A DNA stretch of 64,000 bases from Desulfuromonadaceae bacterium (GCA_034007015.1 JAVERS010000004.1:15336-79335), one strand, 5' to 3'. Shown: positions 53,684 through 63,606, counted from the stretch's first letter. Numbers and translations: made by a program. Notes: a model not told the origin generated them from the sequence alone.

Positions 53684-55219
53684 GTGATTGAAAACATAGA
53701 CCTCAGCATGGTGAACTGGGCGCGCGCCACCTTTGCCCTTACCGCCATGTACCATTGGATTTTCGTTCCCCTCACCTTGGGGTTGGCGTTTTTATGTGCT
53801 TTTTTTGAAACAATTTACGTAAAAACCCGCAACCCAGAGTGGAAGCACCTCACTAAGTTCTGGATGACCCTGTTTGGGATCAACTTTGCCATCGGGGTTG
53901 CCACCGGTATTATTCTAGAGTTTGAGTTTGGCACCAACTGGTCTAACTATTCATGGATGGTTGGGGATATTTTTGGTGCTCCGCTTGCCATTGAGGGAAT
54001 TTTTGCTTTTTTCCTCGAAGCAACTTTCTTTGCGGTGATGTTCTTCGGCTGGGACCGAGTTTCCACCCGTATGCACTTATTTTCCACCTGGATGGTAGCG
54101 GTAGGTTCCAACCTCTCTGCCCTGTGGATTCTGGTAGCTAACGGCTGGATGCAAAATCCAGTGGGGATGGTCTTCAATCCCGATAGTGCGCGCTTTGAGA
54201 TGGAAAACCTGTGGGCGGTGATCTCCTCTCCGGTCGCAATCGGTCACTTTGTCCATGCAACCAGCTCCGGCTTTTTACTTGCATCCCTGTTCGTAGTAGG
54301 GATCTCCAGCTGGTATCTACTGCGCGGCAAGCACAAGAAGTTTGCCCTACGTTCTATCACTGTGGCGTGTGTATTTGGGCTTTTGAGCTCTGTCTTTGTC
54401 GCTTTCAGTGGAGATGAACACGCGTTTATCACTGCAAAAACTCAACCCATGAAACTTGCCGCGATGGAAGGGATGTACAAAGGTTCTTCTGGTGCTGGAC
54501 TGGTGGCGCTGGGGATGGCCAACCCCCTCAAACAACCCGGTGATGATCAGGATCCATTTATATTTAAGATAGAAATTCCGAAAATACTAAGCCTCCTCGC
54601 AACCCGTGATTTCAACGGATTTGTTCCCGGGATTGACGATCTGCTCTATGGCAATGCCGCGCAGGGGATCATGGGGGTAGATGCAAAGATAGAGCGTGGA
54701 GACCAGGCAGTTGCCGCGCTGACGGCGTACAAAGAAGCGCGCAAAGCTAACAACGAAGCACAAGCCTCTGCGGCACTTGAGACGTTTAATCAGCACCGCG
54801 ATTACCTCGGATACGGACACCTGCTCTCTGTTGAACATGCTGTACCGCCAGTGGGTCTCACTTTCTATGCCTTCAGAGTGATGGTTGGCCTTGGCACTTT
54901 TTTTATTTTGCTGTTTGCCCTGTACCTTTTTCTTCTGCATCGTGGAACCTTGGAGCGCAACTATCCGCTCCTGATCCTTGGAGTCCTGGGGCTGTTTCTA
55001 GGCTACGTTGCACAACAGGCCGGCTGGATCGTAACTGAAGTTGGGCGACAGCCGTGGGCGATTCAAGATATGCTGCCGGTAACAGTCGCGCGTTCCAATC
55101 TAGATACGGGCACAGTTATGACAACATTCTTCCTGTTCCTGGCGTTGTTTACCGTCTTACTTATCGCTGAGCTTAAAATCATGGCGCGCCAGATAGGCAT
55201 TGGCCCGGGAGGAGAGTAA
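53684..55219 (+). CDS. cydA: Cytochrome bd oxidase subunit I
   Basis: 511 aa. ARATFALTAMYHWIFVPLTLG, a Q-loop region and GWIVTEVGRQPW. GTG start. Confidence 0.95.
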   Translation: MIENIDLSMVNWARATFALTAMYHWIFVPLTLGLAFLCAFFETIYVKTRNPEWKHLTKFWMTLFGINFAIGVATGIILEFEFGTNWSNYSWMVGDIFGAPLAIEGIFAFFLEATFFAVMFFGWDRVSTRMHLFSTWMVAVGSNLSALWILVANGWMQNPVGMVFNPDSARFEMENLWAVISSPVAIGHFVHATSSGFLLASLFVVGISSWYLLRGKHKKFALRSITVACVFGLLSSVFVAFSGDEHAFITAKTQPMKLAAMEGMYKGSSGAGLVALGMANPLKQPGDDQDPFIFKIEIPKILSLLATRDFNGFVPGIDDLLYGNAAQGIMGVDAKIERGDQAVAALTAYKEARKANNEAQASAALETFNQHRDYLGYGHLLSVEHAVPPVGLTFYAFRVMVGLGTFFILLFALYLFLLHRGTLERNYPLLILGVLGLFLGYVAQQAGWIVTEVGRQPWAIQDMLPVTVARSNLDTGTVMTTFFLFLALFTVLLIAELKIMARQIGIGPGGE

Positions 55220-55221
55220 TT

Positions 55222-56352
55222 ATGTTTGGAAGTCTTGAATTGTCAACACTACAGCAACTTTGGTGGCTTATAGTCTCCGTAGTTGCTGCCCTCTTCATTT
55301 TTCTCACCTTCGTCCAGGGGGGGCAGACCCTTCTACTTACCCTCCCCGAAAGTGAAGACGAGAAAAGTCTGATAGTAAACTCTCTGGGACGCAAGTGGGA
55401 ACTTACCTTCACTACCCTGGTTCTGTTCGGAGGTGCATTTTTCGCTTCGTTCCCGCTGTTTTATGCCACTAGTTTTGGCGGTGCATACTGGGTGTGGATC
55501 GCAATCTTGTTTACTTTTATCATTCAAGCGGTCAGCTACGAATTCCGCACTAAACCGGGAAACTTTCTGGGGCAGAAAACCTTTGAGCGCTTTTTATTCA
55601 TCAATGGCTCAGTCGGCATCCTCCTTATCGGAACAGCAGTGGGGACATTTTTCACCGGCTCTGCCTTCACCCTCAACGACTACAATCTAGTCCAGTGGGG
55701 GCACCCTCTGCGTGGTCTAGAAGCAGCTTTCAGCCTCTTTAATCTGAGCCTTGGAATGTTTCTGGTATTCCTCGCCCGCACCCTTGGCGCTCTGTATCTG
55801 AGCAATAATCTTGATGAGCCCGGACTTGTACAGCGCCTTAAAAACGCAAGTGGAAACAACTTTGTGTGCGCGTTGCCATTTTTGCTGTACGTGCTGGTTC
55901 GCCTAGTCACCATGGATGGATACGCCATCAACCCCACTGACGGAAGTATCTTTATTGAAACCAACAAGTACCTGCACAACCTAATCGAGATGCCTCTGAC
56001 TCTGATTTTGCTTTTAACAGGGCTGGTGCTGGTAATCACAGGGGTGATGTTGAACTACTTCTCCGAATCGGTGCGTGGAATCTGGCCCGCAGGGCTTGGC
56101 ACCGTGCTGACTGTTCTAGCCATATTTTTTCTCGCCGGATACAACAACACTGCGTTCTATCCTTCGCATCTTGACCTGAACAGTAGTATCACCATCTACA
56201 ATGGTTCCAGTAGCCACTATACCCTCACCATGATGAGCTACGTAGCTCTCATGATCCCGTTTGTGCTGGCGTATATCGTGTGGGTGTGGCGCCAGATGGA
56301 TAGTAAGAAACTGTCACTTATCGAAGTGGTATCAGACAAGAAAAGCTATTAG
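55222..56352 (+). CDS. cydB: Cytochrome bd oxidase subunit II
   Basis: 376 aa polytopic protein, 2 nt after the cydA stop, with a typical CydB N-terminus (L..LWW.I......F..L.G). Confidence 0.92.
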   Translation: MFGSLELSTLQQLWWLIVSVVAALFIFLTFVQGGQTLLLTLPESEDEKSLIVNSLGRKWELTFTTLVLFGGAFFASFPLFYATSFGGAYWVWIAILFTFIIQAVSYEFRTKPGNFLGQKTFERFLFINGSVGILLIGTAVGTFFTGSAFTLNDYNLVQWGHPLRGLEAAFSLFNLSLGMFLVFLARTLGALYLSNNLDEPGLVQRLKNASGNNFVCALPFLLYVLVRLVTMDGYAINPTDGSIFIETNKYLHNLIEMPLTLILLLTGLVLVITGVMLNYFSESVRGIWPAGLGTVLTVLAIFFLAGYNNTAFYPSHLDLNSSITIYNGSSSHYTLTMMSYVALMIPFVLAYIVWVWRQMDSKKLSLIEVVSDKKSY

Positions 56353-56784: not shown

Positions 56785-57849
56785 ATGAAACGTATCATTG
56801 CAGTAGCTGTCGCCTCGATGCTGACAGTTTCCACCTTGGCATTTGCCTCAGACGCAGAACTGCGTGCCATGAGCAGGAGCATGTTCAAGCCCATCCCTGC
56901 AAGCGCACCTGAGCTGGCAGGCAACAAAGCCAACCCGGAAAAACTTAAGCTCGGCCACATGCTGTACTTCGAGCCACGCCTCTCCTCCTCCCAGCTTATC
57001 AGCTGCCAGACCTGCCACAATGTTGGCCTTGCTGGTGCTGATCTGCAGGAGACATCAACTGGACACGGATGGCAAAAAGGACCGCGTAACTCCCCCACCA
57101 CCTACAATGCAGTATTCAACACGGCTCAGTTCTGGGATGGACGCGCCAAAGACCTAGCAGAGCAGTCAAAAGGGCCGGTGCAGGCGTCTGTAGAGATGAA
57201 CAACACCCCAGAAAAAGTGATCGAGACGTTGAATTCAATCCCCGAATACGTGGAACTGTTTAAGAAAGCGTTCCCCGGTGAGAAAGTTGCGGTCACCTTC
57301 GACAACATGGCCAAAGCTATTGAGATTTTCGAAGCGACTCTACTTACCCCCAATGATCCCTTTGACCGTTTCATGGCCGGCGACAACGCTGCCCTGAGCG
57401 CAACGCAGAAACAAGGGCTCGAACTCTTTATCAACCGTGGTTGTGTAGGTTGCCATGGCGGCGTGAATCTGGGTGGTACAGGCTACTTCCCCTTCGGAGT
57501 AGTTGAAAAACCCAACGCAGAGTTACTTCCGGAAGGGGACAAGGGGCGCTTCCAGGTAACCAACACTGCAGCAGATGAGTATGTGTTCCGCTCCCCGGCG
57601 TTGCGTAACGTTGCCCTCACCTACCCGTACTTCCACACGGGTAAAGTATGGGATCTCAACACTGCAGTAGAAATTATGAGCAGCTCCCAGTTGGGTATGG
57701 ATCTTAACAAGGAAGAGGCTGCAAAGATTACGAGTTTCCTCAGAGCTCTCACTGGTGAGCAGCCGATAATTGAGCATCCACTCCTACCACCGAGCACCAG
57801 CAAAACACCGCAGCCGAACCTGATGGTAGAAAGCGCAGTCACCAACTAA
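56785..57849 (+). CDS. ccpA: Diheme cytochrome c peroxidase (CcpA/MacA type)
   Basis: Signal peptide, CQTCHN and CVGCHGG heme sites, and conserved NSPT..N..FN..QFWDGRA and PYFHTG. Confidence 0.93.
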   Translation: MKRIIAVAVASMLTVSTLAFASDAELRAMSRSMFKPIPASAPELAGNKANPEKLKLGHMLYFEPRLSSSQLISCQTCHNVGLAGADLQETSTGHGWQKGPRNSPTTYNAVFNTAQFWDGRAKDLAEQSKGPVQASVEMNNTPEKVIETLNSIPEYVELFKKAFPGEKVAVTFDNMAKAIEIFEATLLTPNDPFDRFMAGDNAALSATQKQGLELFINRGCVGCHGGVNLGGTGYFPFGVVEKPNAELLPEGDKGRFQVTNTAADEYVFRSPALRNVALTYPYFHTGKVWDLNTAVEIMSSSQLGMDLNKEEAAKITSFLRALTGEQPIIEHPLLPPSTSKTPQPNLMVESAVTN

Positions 57850-58073: not shown

Positions 58074-58595
58074 ATGGCAGAAAAACGTACAGGTGTAATT
58101 ACATTCAAAAAAAAACCCATGACCCTGCTCGGCCCCGATATTGACGTTGGTAGCCAAGCCCCCGATTTTGAGGTGGTGGACAGCGATCTGAAGTCGGTAA
58201 CCCGTGACAGTGCCAAGGGTAAGATACAACTGATAACCGTAGTTCCTTCCATCGATACTGAAATATGTGACATTATGACGCGCCAGTTCAACAAAGACGT
58301 TTCAGTCCTACCGAAGGATAGAGTTGTGGTATACACCATCAGCGTGGATCTCCCCTTCGCCCAAAAACGCTGGTGTGTCAACGCCGACGTGCAACGGACG
58401 CAACTCCTCTCTGACTACAAGGAGCGCAGCTTCGGGCTGAACTATGGTCTCCTCATCGATGAACTTAAGTTTCTAGCCCGTGCCGTCTACGTCATTGATG
58501 CCACGGGCAAGGTAGCCTATCGCGAAATCGTCCCCGAAATAACTGATGAACCGAACTATTCCGCTGCCTTGAATGCTGTTAAAGCATTGCTGTAA
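58074..58595 (+). CDS. tpx: Thiol peroxidase (atypical 2-Cys peroxiredoxin)
   Basis: PSIDTEICD (peroxidatic Cys) and FAQKRWC (resolving Cys). 173 aa. Confidence 0.93.
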   Translation: MAEKRTGVITFKKKPMTLLGPDIDVGSQAPDFEVVDSDLKSVTRDSAKGKIQLITVVPSIDTEICDIMTRQFNKDVSVLPKDRVVVYTISVDLPFAQKRWCVNADVQRTQLLSDYKERSFGLNYGLLIDELKFLARAVYVIDATGKVAYREIVPEITDEPNYSAALNAVKALL

Positions 58596-58736: not shown

Positions 58737-59213
58737 ATGAAACCACAGAAAGGCTCTATTTTGTTACATATATTCATCGATGCGGATGCCTGCCCGGTCA
58801 AACAGGAGGTATACCGCGTAGCCAGGCGCTATAAACTCCAGGTTACCTTGGTAGCAAACTCCTGGATGCGCATTCCGCACGAGCAGGGGATATCTCTTGA
58901 AGTTGTGGGGGCTGGGGCAGATGCAGCCGACGACTGGATAGTTGGCCAGGTTCAGCCAGATGACATAGTAATAACTGCAGATATTCCCCTTGCGAGTAGA
59001 TGCCTGAAGAAAAACGCAGCTGTCATTGGAACCACAGGAAAGCCGTTTACCGAAAGCAACATAGGTGATTGTGTCGCAACTCGGGATCTACTATCCGAAC
59101 TACGCGATGCGGGAGAAACAACAGGTGGACCGCCGCCATTGAAAAAAAGTGACCGCTCCCGCTTTCTCCAGCGCCTAGATGAGGCTATACAGGCGATTCG
59201 ACGCAAACATTGA
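58737..59213 (+). CDS. yaiI: YaiI/YqxD family protein (UPF0178/DUF188)
   Basis: IFIDADACPVK..V..VA.R......VAN matches the UPF0178 N-terminal signature. Confidence 0.8.
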   Translation: MKPQKGSILLHIFIDADACPVKQEVYRVARRYKLQVTLVANSWMRIPHEQGISLEVVGAGADAADDWIVGQVQPDDIVITADIPLASRCLKKNAAVIGTTGKPFTESNIGDCVATRDLLSELRDAGETTGGPPPLKKSDRSRFLQRLDEAIQAIRRKH

Positions 59214-59413
59214 CCCGCTCACCTTCATGCTACTAAGCAGAAACGGATTTGTGAATTTTACCCTGGCACAGAAGGTTCTTTTCTGCATATTTCCTAATAA
59301 ACTACGCGCAAAGGGTTTTTTATCGTGTACAATATTAAGAGTAGCAAAAAGGTAGCTTGCCATGTGCCCAGAACAAAAAAACAGGCACTAATTTTAACAA
59401 GGAGGAATTGAAA

Positions 59414-59857
59414 ATGAGAAGTTTGACTATGGGCTTAACGTTAAGTTTTATGCTTTTATTTGCCGCAGCAAATGTTTACAGCCACTGTGAAATCCCATGC
59501 GGTATATATGATGATCCGCTGCGGATAAGTCTGCTCAAAGAACACATCACCACCATAGAAAAATCGATGAAAACCATCCATACCCTTGAAAAATCTGCAG
59601 ATCATCATACGCATCAACTCATGCGCTGGGTGAATAACAAAGAAGACCATGCGAACAAATTTCAGGAGATTGTTGCGCAATATTTTATGACCCAACGCAT
59701 CGGCGCGGATGATGCAAATTACGCAAAAAAGATCCAGGCGCTGCATCAGATGCTTGTGTATGCCATGAAATGCAAACAGACAACTGATTTGGACCACATT
59801 GAAACACTTAAAACCCTGGTGGCTGAGTTCGAGAAGCTTTACTTCGCTAAAAAATAG
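59414..59857 (+). CDS. sodN: Nickel superoxide dismutase precursor
   Basis: Ni-hook HCEIPCGIYDD (compare Streptomyces HCDLPCGVYDP) directly after a 23-aa leader, MRSLTMGLTLSFMLLFAAANVYS. ATG 59414 follows an AAGGAGGA RBS; the ORF-track start at 59357 has no RBS. Confidence 0.9.
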   Translation: MRSLTMGLTLSFMLLFAAANVYSHCEIPCGIYDDPLRISLLKEHITTIEKSMKTIHTLEKSADHHTHQLMRWVNNKEDHANKFQEIVAQYFMTQRIGADDANYAKKIQALHQMLVYAMKCKQTTDLDHIETLKTLVAEFEKLYFAKK

Positions 59858-60005: not shown

Positions 60006-60785
60006 TTATTTTGCCATTGCCCCTATGGCTTTTGTGGGATTTGCTTCTACTCTTTTCAGGATTGCGGCAGATTTTTCTTCAGGCAACCAATTGATATTAC
60101 CATTAGATACATCATAAACCGCCCCAACAACTTTGACTTTTCCCGCATTCACTAAATTACGCGAAACAGGACTGTGCATAAATAGATCCTCAATCCCCTG
60201 CCAGATATTTTCTTCAACAGCATACGGGATCACCTCAGCACCGTGGAGATCAGGATTCTTTGCCATCGCCTTTTCCACCGCGGGGATAATGTTATCAACC
60301 AAAGGTGGTATATTCCTCTCAAGTGGATGTCCATGCCCCTGGACAGTGTTTGTCACCGCTGTTACGGCCCCACACTGAGTATGTCCCAGCACGACAAAGA
60401 CAGGGGTATTTACATGTACCAGACCATATTCAACAGATCCTATCTCATCAACATCCAACACATTTCCGGCAACACGAATAACAAAAAGATCCATTACACC
60501 AGCATCAAACAAGATCTCCACCGGAACTCTGGAATCAGAGCAGGCTATTATAGTTGCATAAGCGTGATCGGCCTGGCTTTCCTTGCCAGCAAGGGCAAGG
60601 CGTGACGCGTCGGCATGCGGTTGCGTAGCGCTTCCCGTAGCAAAACGTGTATTCCCAGCTTTCAACATCGCTATTACCTCATCCGGACTTGGCTTGACTA
60701 CCATACTTTCTCTGGCCAAAGCCGAACCACAGGTAAGAGCTATTAAACAGATGACCATCCCTGCTCTGTAAATATTTTTTAGCAT
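60006..60785 (-). CDS. Beta-class carbonic anhydrase with N-terminal signal peptide
   Basis: Zinc ligands CSDSRV and HTQCGAV. Leader MLKNIYRAGMVICLIALTCGSALA|RES. Start at 60785 after GGGAGA. Confidence 0.85.
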   Translation of the reverse strand: MLKNIYRAGMVICLIALTCGSALARESMVVKPSPDEVIAMLKAGNTRFATGSATQPHADASRLALAGKESQADHAYATIIACSDSRVPVEILFDAGVMDLFVIRVAGNVLDVDEIGSVEYGLVHVNTPVFVVLGHTQCGAVTAVTNTVQGHGHPLERNIPPLVDNIIPAVEKAMAKNPDLHGAEVIPYAVEENIWQGIEDLFMHSPVSRNLVNAGKVKVVGAVYDVSNGNINWLPEEKSAAILKRVEANPTKAIGAMAK

Positions 60786-60987
60786 GTACTGTTTCTCCCT
60801 TAAACTTCCATTAAAATCGATAAACAATAAAAACATGTGTTAAGCCATGCCACATTGGGGAGATAGAACCCTTGTTCGAACAATACAGCTTTCAGCAAAA
60901 AGATGGAACAATTTATACTCTAAGCTACTCTATCAAATTCAGCGCCAGCAGATAATTAAGCCACTGGCGTTGAACTAGACACCTGCA

Positions 60988-62412
60988 CTACAACTGGCGC
61001 ATAAATGCTGTCAATGCAGCCTTCTCCTCTTTGGTCAGGTTCAGTTCAGTAACTACGTTGAAAAACTCTACCGTGTCCTCAAGGGTCAACAAACGGCCGT
61101 CATGCATATAGGGTGGTGAGTCTTTTATCCCACGTAGGGTAAAGCTTTTGATGGGACCTACTGGGGTGATCCATTTTCCATTGCTCATTCTCGACTCGTA
61201 AAAACGCCCTACCTTAAGGTCATGCATCCTATCATCGGTATAAAACGGCGCGGGATGGCAGACACTACACTGCCCTTTGCCGAAGAAAATCTCCTGCCCC
61301 AACATTTCCTGTTTCGTGGCCGTCGCTGGGTCTAGCTTGCCGAACACGTTGAGCTTTGGTGCTGGGGGAAAATCAAACAGATTCTGCATCTGTGCCATCA
61401 TTGCCGCCTGACTGGCGCGATCCGGCACATTTATCCCTTTTTTTGTGGCAATCACGTGGTCCCCGTCGAAATAGGCTGTACGCTGTTCAAATTCGGTAAA
61501 GTCCTCAATCGACCTCAGGGAACGCTTTGAGCCATGAATCTGCTGATTGTACATGCCACGCAGACTCACTGAGTCTAGACGAAAACGGGCGACTTGGGGA
61601 CGGGTATCCGGATTCAGGTGGTATGTCGCATTGGTGTGACCATTGGTATGACAATCCAGGCAGGCTACGCCCATACTGGGTTTTTCTACTTTCCTATCCT
61701 CAGTCTGATTGAATTGCTGCTGTGTGAAGGGGGTAAGGAGCAACCTTAACCCTTCCATCTGAACCGGGGTAAGAATTCCACTCATCAATTCATAATAGTT
61801 GTCTATGCTGAGCATTTTTCCTTGAGATACATCCCCCAGTTCTGGATGGGTGGTCAAATACATTGGCGGGGGAAATTCTGGGATAAAATGTAGCGGCAGA
61901 TCAAAGTCAACATCGAAGCGTTTAAGTGAGCGTTGCTCCAACCTTTGTATCTCATCGATTTGCTCCTTAGGAAACACCTGCCCCCCAGTTGCATGTTTGG
62001 TATGCGGGAGAGGCAAAAAACCCTCGGGAAAAAGGTCTTTCTCTTTAATTTCCGCTGCGGTCATAGCATTTAACTTTTCCCACGTCATCGATTTTGGAAG
62101 TTTTACCCGCACCCCTTCCTGGATTGGCTTTCTCTTTCCCGACATCATCACCTCGGCGGGTCGATCACTTAAATCATAGCGGCGTTCCAAAAGCGCCTGT
62201 TGCCGCTCCATCACTTTCGGCTTCTCTTTCACCTCTTTCTTCATGGTGGTATTAAAGTCTTCCTCAATCACAACCGGCATGTACGTCTGTGGGTTAGGAT
62301 CAACCTCTGCGGGGATCTGTGCATCAATCGCATAAGCGATGCCCACAGTGATCAGAACCAAGCATAGAACCCCAATGCATCCCCACCATCTTTTATTAAA
62401 ATTGCTCCTCAT
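60988..62412 (-). CDS. Long (474 aa) CCP/MauG-superfamily diheme protein
   Basis: N-terminal TM or signal segment. Heme sites CLDCH and CSVCH. C-terminal SPPYMHDGRLLTLEDTVEFFN is typical of the diheme peroxidase fold. A ~230-aa N-terminal extension has no recognisable motif. Confidence 0.75.
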   Translation of the reverse strand: MRSNFNKRWWGCIGVLCLVLITVGIAYAIDAQIPAEVDPNPQTYMPVVIEEDFNTTMKKEVKEKPKVMERQQALLERRYDLSDRPAEVMMSGKRKPIQEGVRVKLPKSMTWEKLNAMTAAEIKEKDLFPEGFLPLPHTKHATGGQVFPKEQIDEIQRLEQRSLKRFDVDFDLPLHFIPEFPPPMYLTTHPELGDVSQGKMLSIDNYYELMSGILTPVQMEGLRLLLTPFTQQQFNQTEDRKVEKPSMGVACLDCHTNGHTNATYHLNPDTRPQVARFRLDSVSLRGMYNQQIHGSKRSLRSIEDFTEFEQRTAYFDGDHVIATKKGINVPDRASQAAMMAQMQNLFDFPPAPKLNVFGKLDPATATKQEMLGQEIFFGKGQCSVCHPAPFYTDDRMHDLKVGRFYESRMSNGKWITPVGPIKSFTLRGIKDSPPYMHDGRLLTLEDTVEFFNVVTELNLTKEEKAALTAFMRQL

Positions 62413-62625: not shown

Positions 62626-62670
62626 AAAAAAAGCACAAGGCTCAACCAAATGGCTGAACCTTGCGCTTTT
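62626..62670 (-). terminator. Rho-independent terminator after the thioredoxin-like gene
   Basis: Minus strand: gcgcaaggttcag-(8 nt)-ttgagccttgtgc (13 positions: 10 Watson-Crick pairs, 2 G·U wobbles and one terminal A·G mismatch), followed by ttttttt. Confidence 0.75.
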
Positions 62671-62720: not shown

Positions 62721-63293
62721 TTACAGCAGGCTGTAAGGAGTTGCGCGTGCCACCCAAGTGCTATGCGGATAATCTTTTTTCAAACTCTGGTAGAGGTTTT
62801 TGAGGTGATTTACATCTTTAGTTTCAATATAATTGGCCACCCCTTTCAGGTAGACCGCCTCAGGGGCCGAACTACTATTGGGATAATCCTGCAAAACCAA
62901 GTCAAACTGTTTAATCGCGCCAGGACGTTCACCTTTATCAAATTGAGCCTTACCCATCCCTAGCAGCAGACTTGGGACAAACTCCTCTGGCGGGAAAAAC
63001 CCCATAGTGCGGGAAAGCTCAGCGCCAGAAGCATCCAGCAGGAGCAACAGCGGAGTCCACTTCACCTTAAACTGAGGCGCGAGTTCCTTATGATCAGAGG
63101 CGATACGCAGGGGTACGAGATTACTGGAAATAAAATCGATTACGCTTGAGTGTGGATACGAAACTGCATCCATCTGTTTGCAACCAATTCAGCCGGGGTT
63201 GAAGAAATCAAGGAAGATCAGTTTTCCGTCTTTTCCAGCAACACTCTTCGCTTCGTCGAGGGACTCTAGCCACTGGATGTTTTTCTTTGCCAT
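62721..63293 (-). CDS. Thioredoxin-fold (Thioredoxin_7-like) protein with TPR-like C-terminus; probable selenoprotein with in-frame UGA (UxxC)
   Basis: Reading upstream from the tracked ORF (start 63173) in frame crosses a single TGA (complement 63189-63191). It reaches an ATG (complement 63291-63293) that has AAGGAGA 7 nt upstream. The joined N-terminus is MAKKNIQWLESLDEAKSVAGKDGKLIFLDFFNPG-U-IGCKQMDAVSYP, which matches the ..DF.a.WC..Ck.m.. redox-motif context. Confidence 0.7.
63153..63172 (-). promoter_or_regulatory. Candidate bacterial SECIS hairpin
   Basis: mRNA UGGAUGC-AGUUUC-GUAUCCA: 7 bp including one G·U, with a 6-nt loop containing GU. The stem starts 16 nt after the UGA, so the loop begins about 23 nt downstream. 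Confidence 0.45.
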
Positions 63294-63606
63294 CGTAGAT
63301 TCTCCTTTTAATAGTATTGGGCACGTGTTTTCTCTATAATCCTAGATCAAAAATCAAATCATGCAATGTGGATTCACACATTTTATGGATACTTTTCCTT
63401 CCTATCATGCATATCCCCTCCTTTTGCCTTGCCGCGCAAATAAAACTGAGCACATATCGGTAAGATCACACAAAACCCAGCACAAACGACAATGGAAACC
63501 GATGGGGGCCAATGGGGCATAACTTGAGTTCCAGCAAAACCCCTCTACAATGAACCATGTCGCAACCATTTTTAGTAACGTTTAAATGATGCCAATGGAG
63601 GGACCC

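Follow-up and report, generated by a model that had tools for sequence, protein, structure and literature searches.

This study identifies the gene at positions 62721..63293 on the minus strand of the window (that is, the entire 64 kb stretch of DNA that was analysed), here termed the UxxC gene, as a thioredoxin-fold gene which, in our judgement and with high confidence, is decoded with selenocysteine (Sec) in a UxxC active-site motif. The correct product is very probably a protein of 190 residues carrying Sec at position 35, as opposed to the 150-residue 'hypothetical protein' returned by ORF finders. Sequence comparison places the gene as an ortholog within the 'Thiol:disulfide interchange protein' selenoprotein family known from Geobacter and Syntrophus, and the claim that it encodes a selenoprotein is not new, this family having already been published. 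Since the family was described approximately 20 years ago, the result amounts to the correction of a gene model and not to a discovery.

The family is found in supplementary file 4 of Zhang et al. 2006 (PMC1794560) under '#Thiol:disulfide interchange protein', with the motif ...LLDFFNPGUIGCKQMDAV... and three Sec-containing members, from Geobacter metallireducens, G. uraniumreducens and Syntrophus aciditrophicus; the same survey does not list it for Desulfuromonas acetoxidans. Two reviews (PMC9312934, PMC13188914) describe it as a PF13098 family with a UxxC motif, represented by WP_011366075.1 and 'predicted with high confidence', and credit it to the prokaryotic selenoproteome paper of Kryukov & Gladyshev 2004. 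The window protein and the G. metallireducens member align without gaps over 186 residues, with 56% identity and 75% positives (E 1e-83).

Translation of the minus strand demonstrated that the frame of the UxxC gene, from an ATG at 63293-63291 (read directly from the sequence) to a TAA at 62723-62721, is interrupted once only, by a TGA at codon 35 (63189..63191). On the basis of translation and alignment, this codon is read as the Sec that forms the first residue of the U-I-G-C motif, while a TGC codon at 63180..63182 supplies Cys38, the resolving cysteine. The start codon is preceded by the Shine-Dalgarno sequence AAGGAGA (63301..63307, minus strand), separated from it by a 7-nt spacer (ATCTACG). 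The mechanical ORF list gives only 62721..63173 for this gene, starting at an internal ATG (Met41, 63173) that lies 40 codons downstream of the true start, and the sequence ahead of Met41 (...GGTTGCAAACAG) contains no purine-rich ribosome-binding site. The first-pass annotation had proposed both that the ORF track was truncated at an internal Met lacking a ribosome-binding site and that the frame continued upstream through a single TGA to a well-positioned start; the ORF list and the minus-strand reading bear out the former, and each element of the latter was confirmed. An intrinsic terminator consisting of a 19-pair stem followed by a T-run (62629..62670, minus strand) is located approximately 50 nt past the stop codon, and with so strong a terminator the gene looks monocistronic.

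An open frame that runs on past a TGA is common by chance, as the 64 kb window contains 44 TGA sites with no fewer than 25 open codons to either side and a combined 150 or more. The TGA of the UxxC gene stands above this background because of homology, in that Pfam domains span the TGA and 79 of 80 species keep both the TGA and the upstream peptide; none of the other TGA sites flanked by open frame in the window is accompanied by a redox motif.

A protein search with the UxxC protein yielded 161 relatives, the best 120 of which were compared. Among these best 120, 111 are annotated as proteins of 149-157 aa that begin at the equivalent of Met41, and nine are called at full length. Eight of the nine read FFNxxCIGCKQMDAV with Cys exactly at position 35, in agreement with the earlier proposal that the TGA occupies the position of the N-terminal Cys of a CxxC motif. 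The ninth (P0022, locus L085) shows 'W' at position 35, where the DNA reads TGA; this entry also extends beyond the usual C-terminus of the family.

A species survey, in which one genome per species was scanned, provided 80 loci. The aligned codon is TGA in 79 of them and TGC in one (L048, a Desulforhopalus MAG). These 79 TGA loci preserve 30-35 in-frame residues ahead of the TGA, with the third-position variation expected of coding sequence, and Cys38 is encoded by TGC or TGT throughout the 80 Sec-form sequences formed by the window and these loci. A check suggested by the first-pass annotation, namely that homologs should share the N-terminal 34 residues and carry Cys or TGA at position 35, was thus run with a favourable outcome. 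Most hosts belong to Desulfuromonas, Geobacteraceae, Syntrophorhabdus/Syntrophales and other Thermodesulfobacteriota, but eight genomes of Candidatus Brocadia, one of Jettenia, Acidobacteria and one Dehalococcoidia MAG are also among them; the nearest locus belongs to an uncultured Desulfuromonas with 96% identity. The copies in the anammox planctomycetes (Brocadia/Jettenia loci L036, L044, L047, L050, L051, L053, L057, L064 and L078) keep the TGA, are 48-51% identical to the window protein and possess the same hairpin (see below), often in the form GGAUAC/GUAUCC.

This survey bears directly on the possibility that a TGC/TGT Cys codon came to be TGA here, whether through faulty sequencing or assembly or through a recent inactivating mutation, in which case the gene would encode an ordinary CxxC protein or be a pseudogene. 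The TGC of the L048 relative speaks for such an origin, as it places the TGA and Cys states one substitution apart. Against this, 79 independent assemblies at the species level, and a further metagenome contig, all have TGA at this codon, the hairpin described below co-occurs with it, and elsewhere the gene is intact and conserved. The retention of the TGA from species to species excludes sequencing error, which the first-pass annotation had named as a possible undoing of its own proposal, and we regard the error or mutation reading as a whole as exceedingly improbable.

Downstream of the TGA, the transcript can form a SECIS-like hairpin (63153..63172, minus strand; UGGAUGC / AGUUUC / GUAUCCA) with 7 bp and a 6-nt loop that bears G-U at loop positions 2-3. 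The 20-nt hairpin alone folds at -8.0 kcal/mol, and its 66-nt context at -17.2 kcal/mol (z = -2.35 versus shuffles). The distance from the UGA to the start of the loop is 23 nt in the window and the register is identical in all 79 TGA loci; the loop is 6 nt, or 4 nt in relatives that have a G-C closing pair, and the stem is 6-7 bp. According to published constraints on bacterial SECIS elements (PMC13188914), the apical loop measures 3-9 nt and the upper stem 4-16 bp, a G is found in the first two loop positions and is usually followed by G or U, the UGA lies 16-37 nt from the apical loop, and the minimum free energy is at or below -7.5 kcal/mol. The loop, stem, A-G-U sequence, spacing and folding energy of the present hairpin all fall within these limits.

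In an alignment of the window with the 79 TGA loci, no pair of the 6-bp core is preserved in fewer than 94% of distinct sequences, and the G-C, G-C and C-G pairs of the core are essentially invariant; the loop (A-G-U-U-U-C) has an invariant G-U at positions 2-3 throughout the 80 Sec-form sequences. Where pairs do change, an A-U pair becomes G-C in 18 distinct sequences, through an Asp-to-Gly replacement in one arm and a synonymous TAT-to-TAC change in the other, a U-A pair becomes A-U in four sequences and a G-U pair becomes A-U in five; compensatory changes are thereby seen at two pairs of the hairpin. The Ser/Thr/Ala codon at which the stem closes has G at its four-fold degenerate third position in all 80 Sec-form sequences, whereas other four-fold degenerate sites near the hairpin use all four bases. 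RNAalifold, applied to a longer alignment, independently predicts just this same hairpin. The first-pass annotation had pointed to a 7-bp hairpin with a GU-containing loop at the distance expected of a SECIS, and that element proves to be conserved, covarying and within the bacterial SECIS model. Part of its conservation is nonetheless owed to the protein, as the hairpin is situated in conserved coding sequence.

Of four independent Cys-form genes that were compared (L048, L081, L083 and L084), one has lost the hairpin, two carry it in degraded form and one keeps it intact. Such decay is the pattern that would be expected if the hairpin were selected only together with the TGA. The intact case (L084:3001-3573, a JGI metagenome contig) has the codon TGC yet retains a perfect SECIS-type hairpin (-9.6 kcal/mol), which is compatible with a recent Sec-to-Cys conversion. 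The compensatory changes, the invariant synonymous G and the decay in three of the four Cys forms lend indirect support, at the level of sequence, to the predicted binding of SelB and to the predicted dependence of UGA decoding on the hairpin.

A candidate lower helix was also noted (63129-63194, minus strand), in which the GA of the UGA together with AUYGGYUGC would pair with GUN-AUC-GAN-UU approximately 50 nt downstream. This helix is predicted for the window sequence, and over 80 sequences 77.5% of its cells are paired, compared with 30-48% in slid controls; it is absent from the RNAalifold prediction and is also confounded with conserved V-I-D/E-F codons. No SECIS family was recovered from Rfam, either across the whole window at gathering thresholds or in 62900-63350 at permissive E-values. 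The sole Rfam match, a snoRNA, was rejected as a chance hit on the wrong strand.

At the protein level, the UxxC gene product is predicted to comprise two domains, namely a thioredoxin-fold domain at residues ~7-106 (62976..63275, minus strand), which includes a WTP cis-proline loop at residues 79-81, and a helical TPR-like domain at residues ~107-190 (62724..62975, minus strand). Both assignments draw on Pfam, PDB profiles and a structural model, and the second also on NCBIfam. With U read as C, Pfam returned Thioredoxin_2 (PF13098) at residues 19-106 (3.8e-9; 37.3 bits against a cutoff of 27) and Thioredoxin_7 at residues 7-88 (8e-7), and both matches span the TGA. The C-terminal half matched TPR_6 at residues 110-140, with TPR_6/YfiO-type repeats within residues 100-180, as well as YbgF/BamD-type models and, in the PDB profile search, the structures of CpoB and YbgF. 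No NCBIfam model reaches its cutoff for this protein, a circumstance that fits the persistence of the truncated annotation.

An AlphaFold2 model of the Cys homolog P0025 (52% identical; pLDDT 97.2, pTM 0.91) displays a thioredoxin fold followed by six helices and is all-helical from residue 97. A helix starts at residue 32, directly after the first active-site Cys31 and hence in the classical position. The upstream segment had been assigned to the beta1-alpha1 unit of a thioredoxin fold, an assignment with which this model agrees in placing CxxC at the start of alpha1 and in having DsbD-gamma as its best match. The UxxC protein has neither a signal peptide nor a membrane segment, its N-terminus (MAKKNIQWLESLDEAK...) being devoid of a hydrophobic leader, and it is for this reason probably cytoplasmic.

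The domain data are also pertinent to the view that translation truly ends at the TGA, with function residing in the 150-residue protein initiated at Met41 and with the 34 codons ahead of the stop making up a separate short ORF or a leader that is not translated. Most database gene calls do begin at Met41, and this residue is invariant in the family; its invariance is, however, also explained by the ATG being part of the SECIS stem context, and Met41 has no ribosome-binding site of its own. A product of 150 residues would, moreover, miss the active-site motif together with strand beta1 and the first part of helix alpha1. In 80 species the peptide encoded ahead of the TGA is conserved in frame while third codon positions vary synonymously, and the Cys forms are continuous full-length proteins. 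In light of these findings we consider termination at the TGA highly unlikely and retain the 190-residue Sec-containing product.

A further alternative is that the UGA is read through without Sec, either because the codon is globally reassigned to Trp or Gly (as in codes 4 and 25) or through near-cognate or Cys insertion. Cys can be misinserted at Sec-UGA codons when selenium is limiting, and one database entry (P0022) translates the site as W. That W, however, simply corresponds to TGA in the DNA, and the site aligns with a catalytic Cys and with neither Trp nor Gly. Furthermore, TGA terminates 5 of 20 Pfam-confirmed ORFs in the window and is therefore not globally reassigned, and the clades to which the hosts belong (Desulfuromonas, Geobacter, Syntrophus) follow the standard code and possess the Sec machinery. 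Readthrough of this kind accordingly commands very little credence from us, and decoding as Sec continues to be the preferred interpretation. Within the 64 kb window, a tRNA scan detected neither tRNA-Sec nor any other tRNA, and a Pfam scan of the 30 largest ORFs detected no SelA, SelB or SelD domains. Desulfuromonas acetoxidans was reported to use Sec in the 2006 survey, with the selenoproteins SelD, GrdA, GrdB and HesB-like (PMC1794560), which renders the Sec trait plausible for this lineage.

Upstream in window coordinates, the UxxC gene is preceded by genes for cytochrome bd oxidase (cydAB, 53684-56352), a di-haem cytochrome c peroxidase (56785-57849), a thiol peroxidase (58074-58595), a YaiI-family protein (58737-59213), a Ni-superoxide dismutase (59357-59857, plus strand; Pfam Sod_Ni 1.8e-31), a beta-carbonic anhydrase (60006-60836, minus strand) and a 474-residue protein with two CxxCH haem motifs that is distantly MauG/CCP-like (60988-62412, minus strand). 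The last of these has no Pfam match and, in NCBIfam, resembles the di-haem enzymes MauG/MbnH/CCP only weakly and in its C-terminal part (36 bits, where the cutoffs exceed 300); its gene is immediately downstream of the UxxC gene, an arrangement common to L001 and L002 only. The ORF of the Ni-superoxide dismutase carries the Ni-hook HCEIPCGIYDD directly after a hydrophobic, signal-peptide-like leader (MRSLTMGLTLSFMLLFAAANVYS, read from an internal ATG near 59414), which suggests export and maturation by signal peptidase and would set it apart from the Streptomyces enzyme with its short propeptide. As judged by the Pfam scan of the 30 largest ORFs, the region is ordinary chromosome, including PolA, GlyS, PPDK, Lon, MetH, a type II secretion system and cydAB.

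The first-pass annotation had described the UxxC gene as closing a cluster of peroxide and superoxide defence genes. Such a cluster is real locally, but most of these genes are located on the opposite strand, the UxxC gene possesses its own ribosome-binding site and terminator, and the association does not extend to the family. An all-against-all comparison of neighbours across 81 loci identified no conserved neighbour gene; none of the best neighbour clusters extends beyond 17 of the 81 loci (a Geobacteraceae clade), and the oxidative-stress neighbours of the window recur only in its two closest relatives, L001 and L002. Gene context offers at best a weak hint to function.

On the sequence evidence Sec is very probably inserted at codon 35, and we propose that a SelB-type elongation factor with Sec-tRNA(Sec) would be recruited by the short hairpin within the M-D-A-V-S-Y-P codons, so that the UGA would be recoded and helix alpha1 would begin with a U-I-G-C active site. 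The product would be a cytoplasmic thiol/selenol-disulfide oxidoreductase of 190 residues in which a DsbD-gamma / Thioredoxin_2/7 fold is followed by the TPR-like domain. In the catalytic cycle that we infer, the Sec35 selenolate would attack an oxidised substrate thiol (a disulfide or sulfenate), Cys38 would resolve the intermediate to yield a selenenylsulfide, and a thioredoxin-type reductant or system would recycle the latter, while the TPR-like domain may serve in partner binding and the protein as a whole may act in oxidative-stress defence; the biochemical role is here deduced from the fold only. A more speculative reading, which we consider unlikely, is that of a cytoplasmic 'seleno-chaperedoxin', almost obligately Sec-dependent (79 of 80 species), in which the TPR-like domain would hold client proteins and the UxxC motif would reduce their oxidised thiols, as part of the defence of strict anaerobes, including anammox Brocadia, against oxygen or peroxide. 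The neighbouring genes in the source Desulfuromonas hint at the defence component of this reading.

The practical value of this analysis is in annotation, as it supplies a corrected 190-residue gene model for a family in which most database entries (111 of the best 120 homologs of 161) contain the same truncation error. As far as the loci compared here indicate, the great majority of the family contains Sec and its distribution is far broader than originally described, the Sec form now being present in 79 species-level genomes of several phyla as opposed to the three Sec members of the 2006 census (PMC1794560). The very uniform hairpin in the M-D-A-V-S/T-Y-P codons could furnish a compact, family-specific signature for automatic gene rescue. 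The understanding of Sec biology is unchanged by the UxxC gene.

Comparison with known systems places the UxxC protein among several groups of thioredoxin-fold proteins. The selenoprotein families VPGUxxT (NF041382, NF041383), Trx7/PDZ (seleno)protein (NF041199) and TsoB (NF045694) have the same Thioredoxin_7/DsbD-like fold with Sec in an active-site motif. The NCBIfam matches to selenoprotein families are weak, spanning residues ~5-108 with 15-31 bits against cutoffs of 275-805, and membership in these three was rejected since the scores are far under the cutoffs and the motifs and architectures differ; they represent separate families.

E. coli YbbN/CnoX (PDB 3qou, 3qdn) likewise combines a thioredoxin fold at the N-terminus with helical TPR repeats behind it, and the fold search recovered it over both domains (196-200 aligned columns, E 1e-6), while the PDB profile search returned no sequence-level match to CnoX/YbbN. 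The likeness is accompanied by 14-16% identity, an rmsd of 10.8-11.8 Å, a query-normalised TM-score of 0.44-0.45 and a different domain arrangement, and the UxxC protein is shorter by approximately 95 residues. CnoX has an SxxC motif and is devoid of oxidoreductase activity, whereas the UxxC family has a complete UxxC/CxxC. Membership in the CnoX/YbbN chaperedoxin family was rejected on account of the poor superposition over both domains, and the resemblance is one of architecture by analogy only.

The closest solved folds are those of DsbD-gamma (E. coli; PDB 1uc7, 2fwe, 4ip1) and the Bacteroides 'putative disulphide-isomerase' 2kuc, which the PDB profile search retrieved at 1e-8 and 5e-13, respectively, with the CxxC and cis-Pro loop aligned. 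Foldseek with the P0025 model gave a target-normalised TM-score of ~0.71 for DsbD-gamma at ~26% identity. Relative to DsbD-gamma, the UxxC protein has Sec for the first Cys, an extra C-terminal TPR-like domain and a probable cytoplasmic location. Relative to complete DsbD, it is without signal peptide, membrane domain and the other DsbD modules, and DsbD-related models match its thioredoxin domain only. Membership in the membrane-anchored, periplasm-facing, three-domain DsbD was rejected for a protein of 190 residues with no hydrophobic leader.

The published Thiol:disulfide interchange selenoprotein family, finally, has the same length (~186-190 aa), the motif FFNPG-U-IGCKQMDAV, the PF13098 assignment and deltaproteobacterial hosts. 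Nothing essential sets the window protein apart from this family, and it is best described as the Desulfuromonas ortholog.
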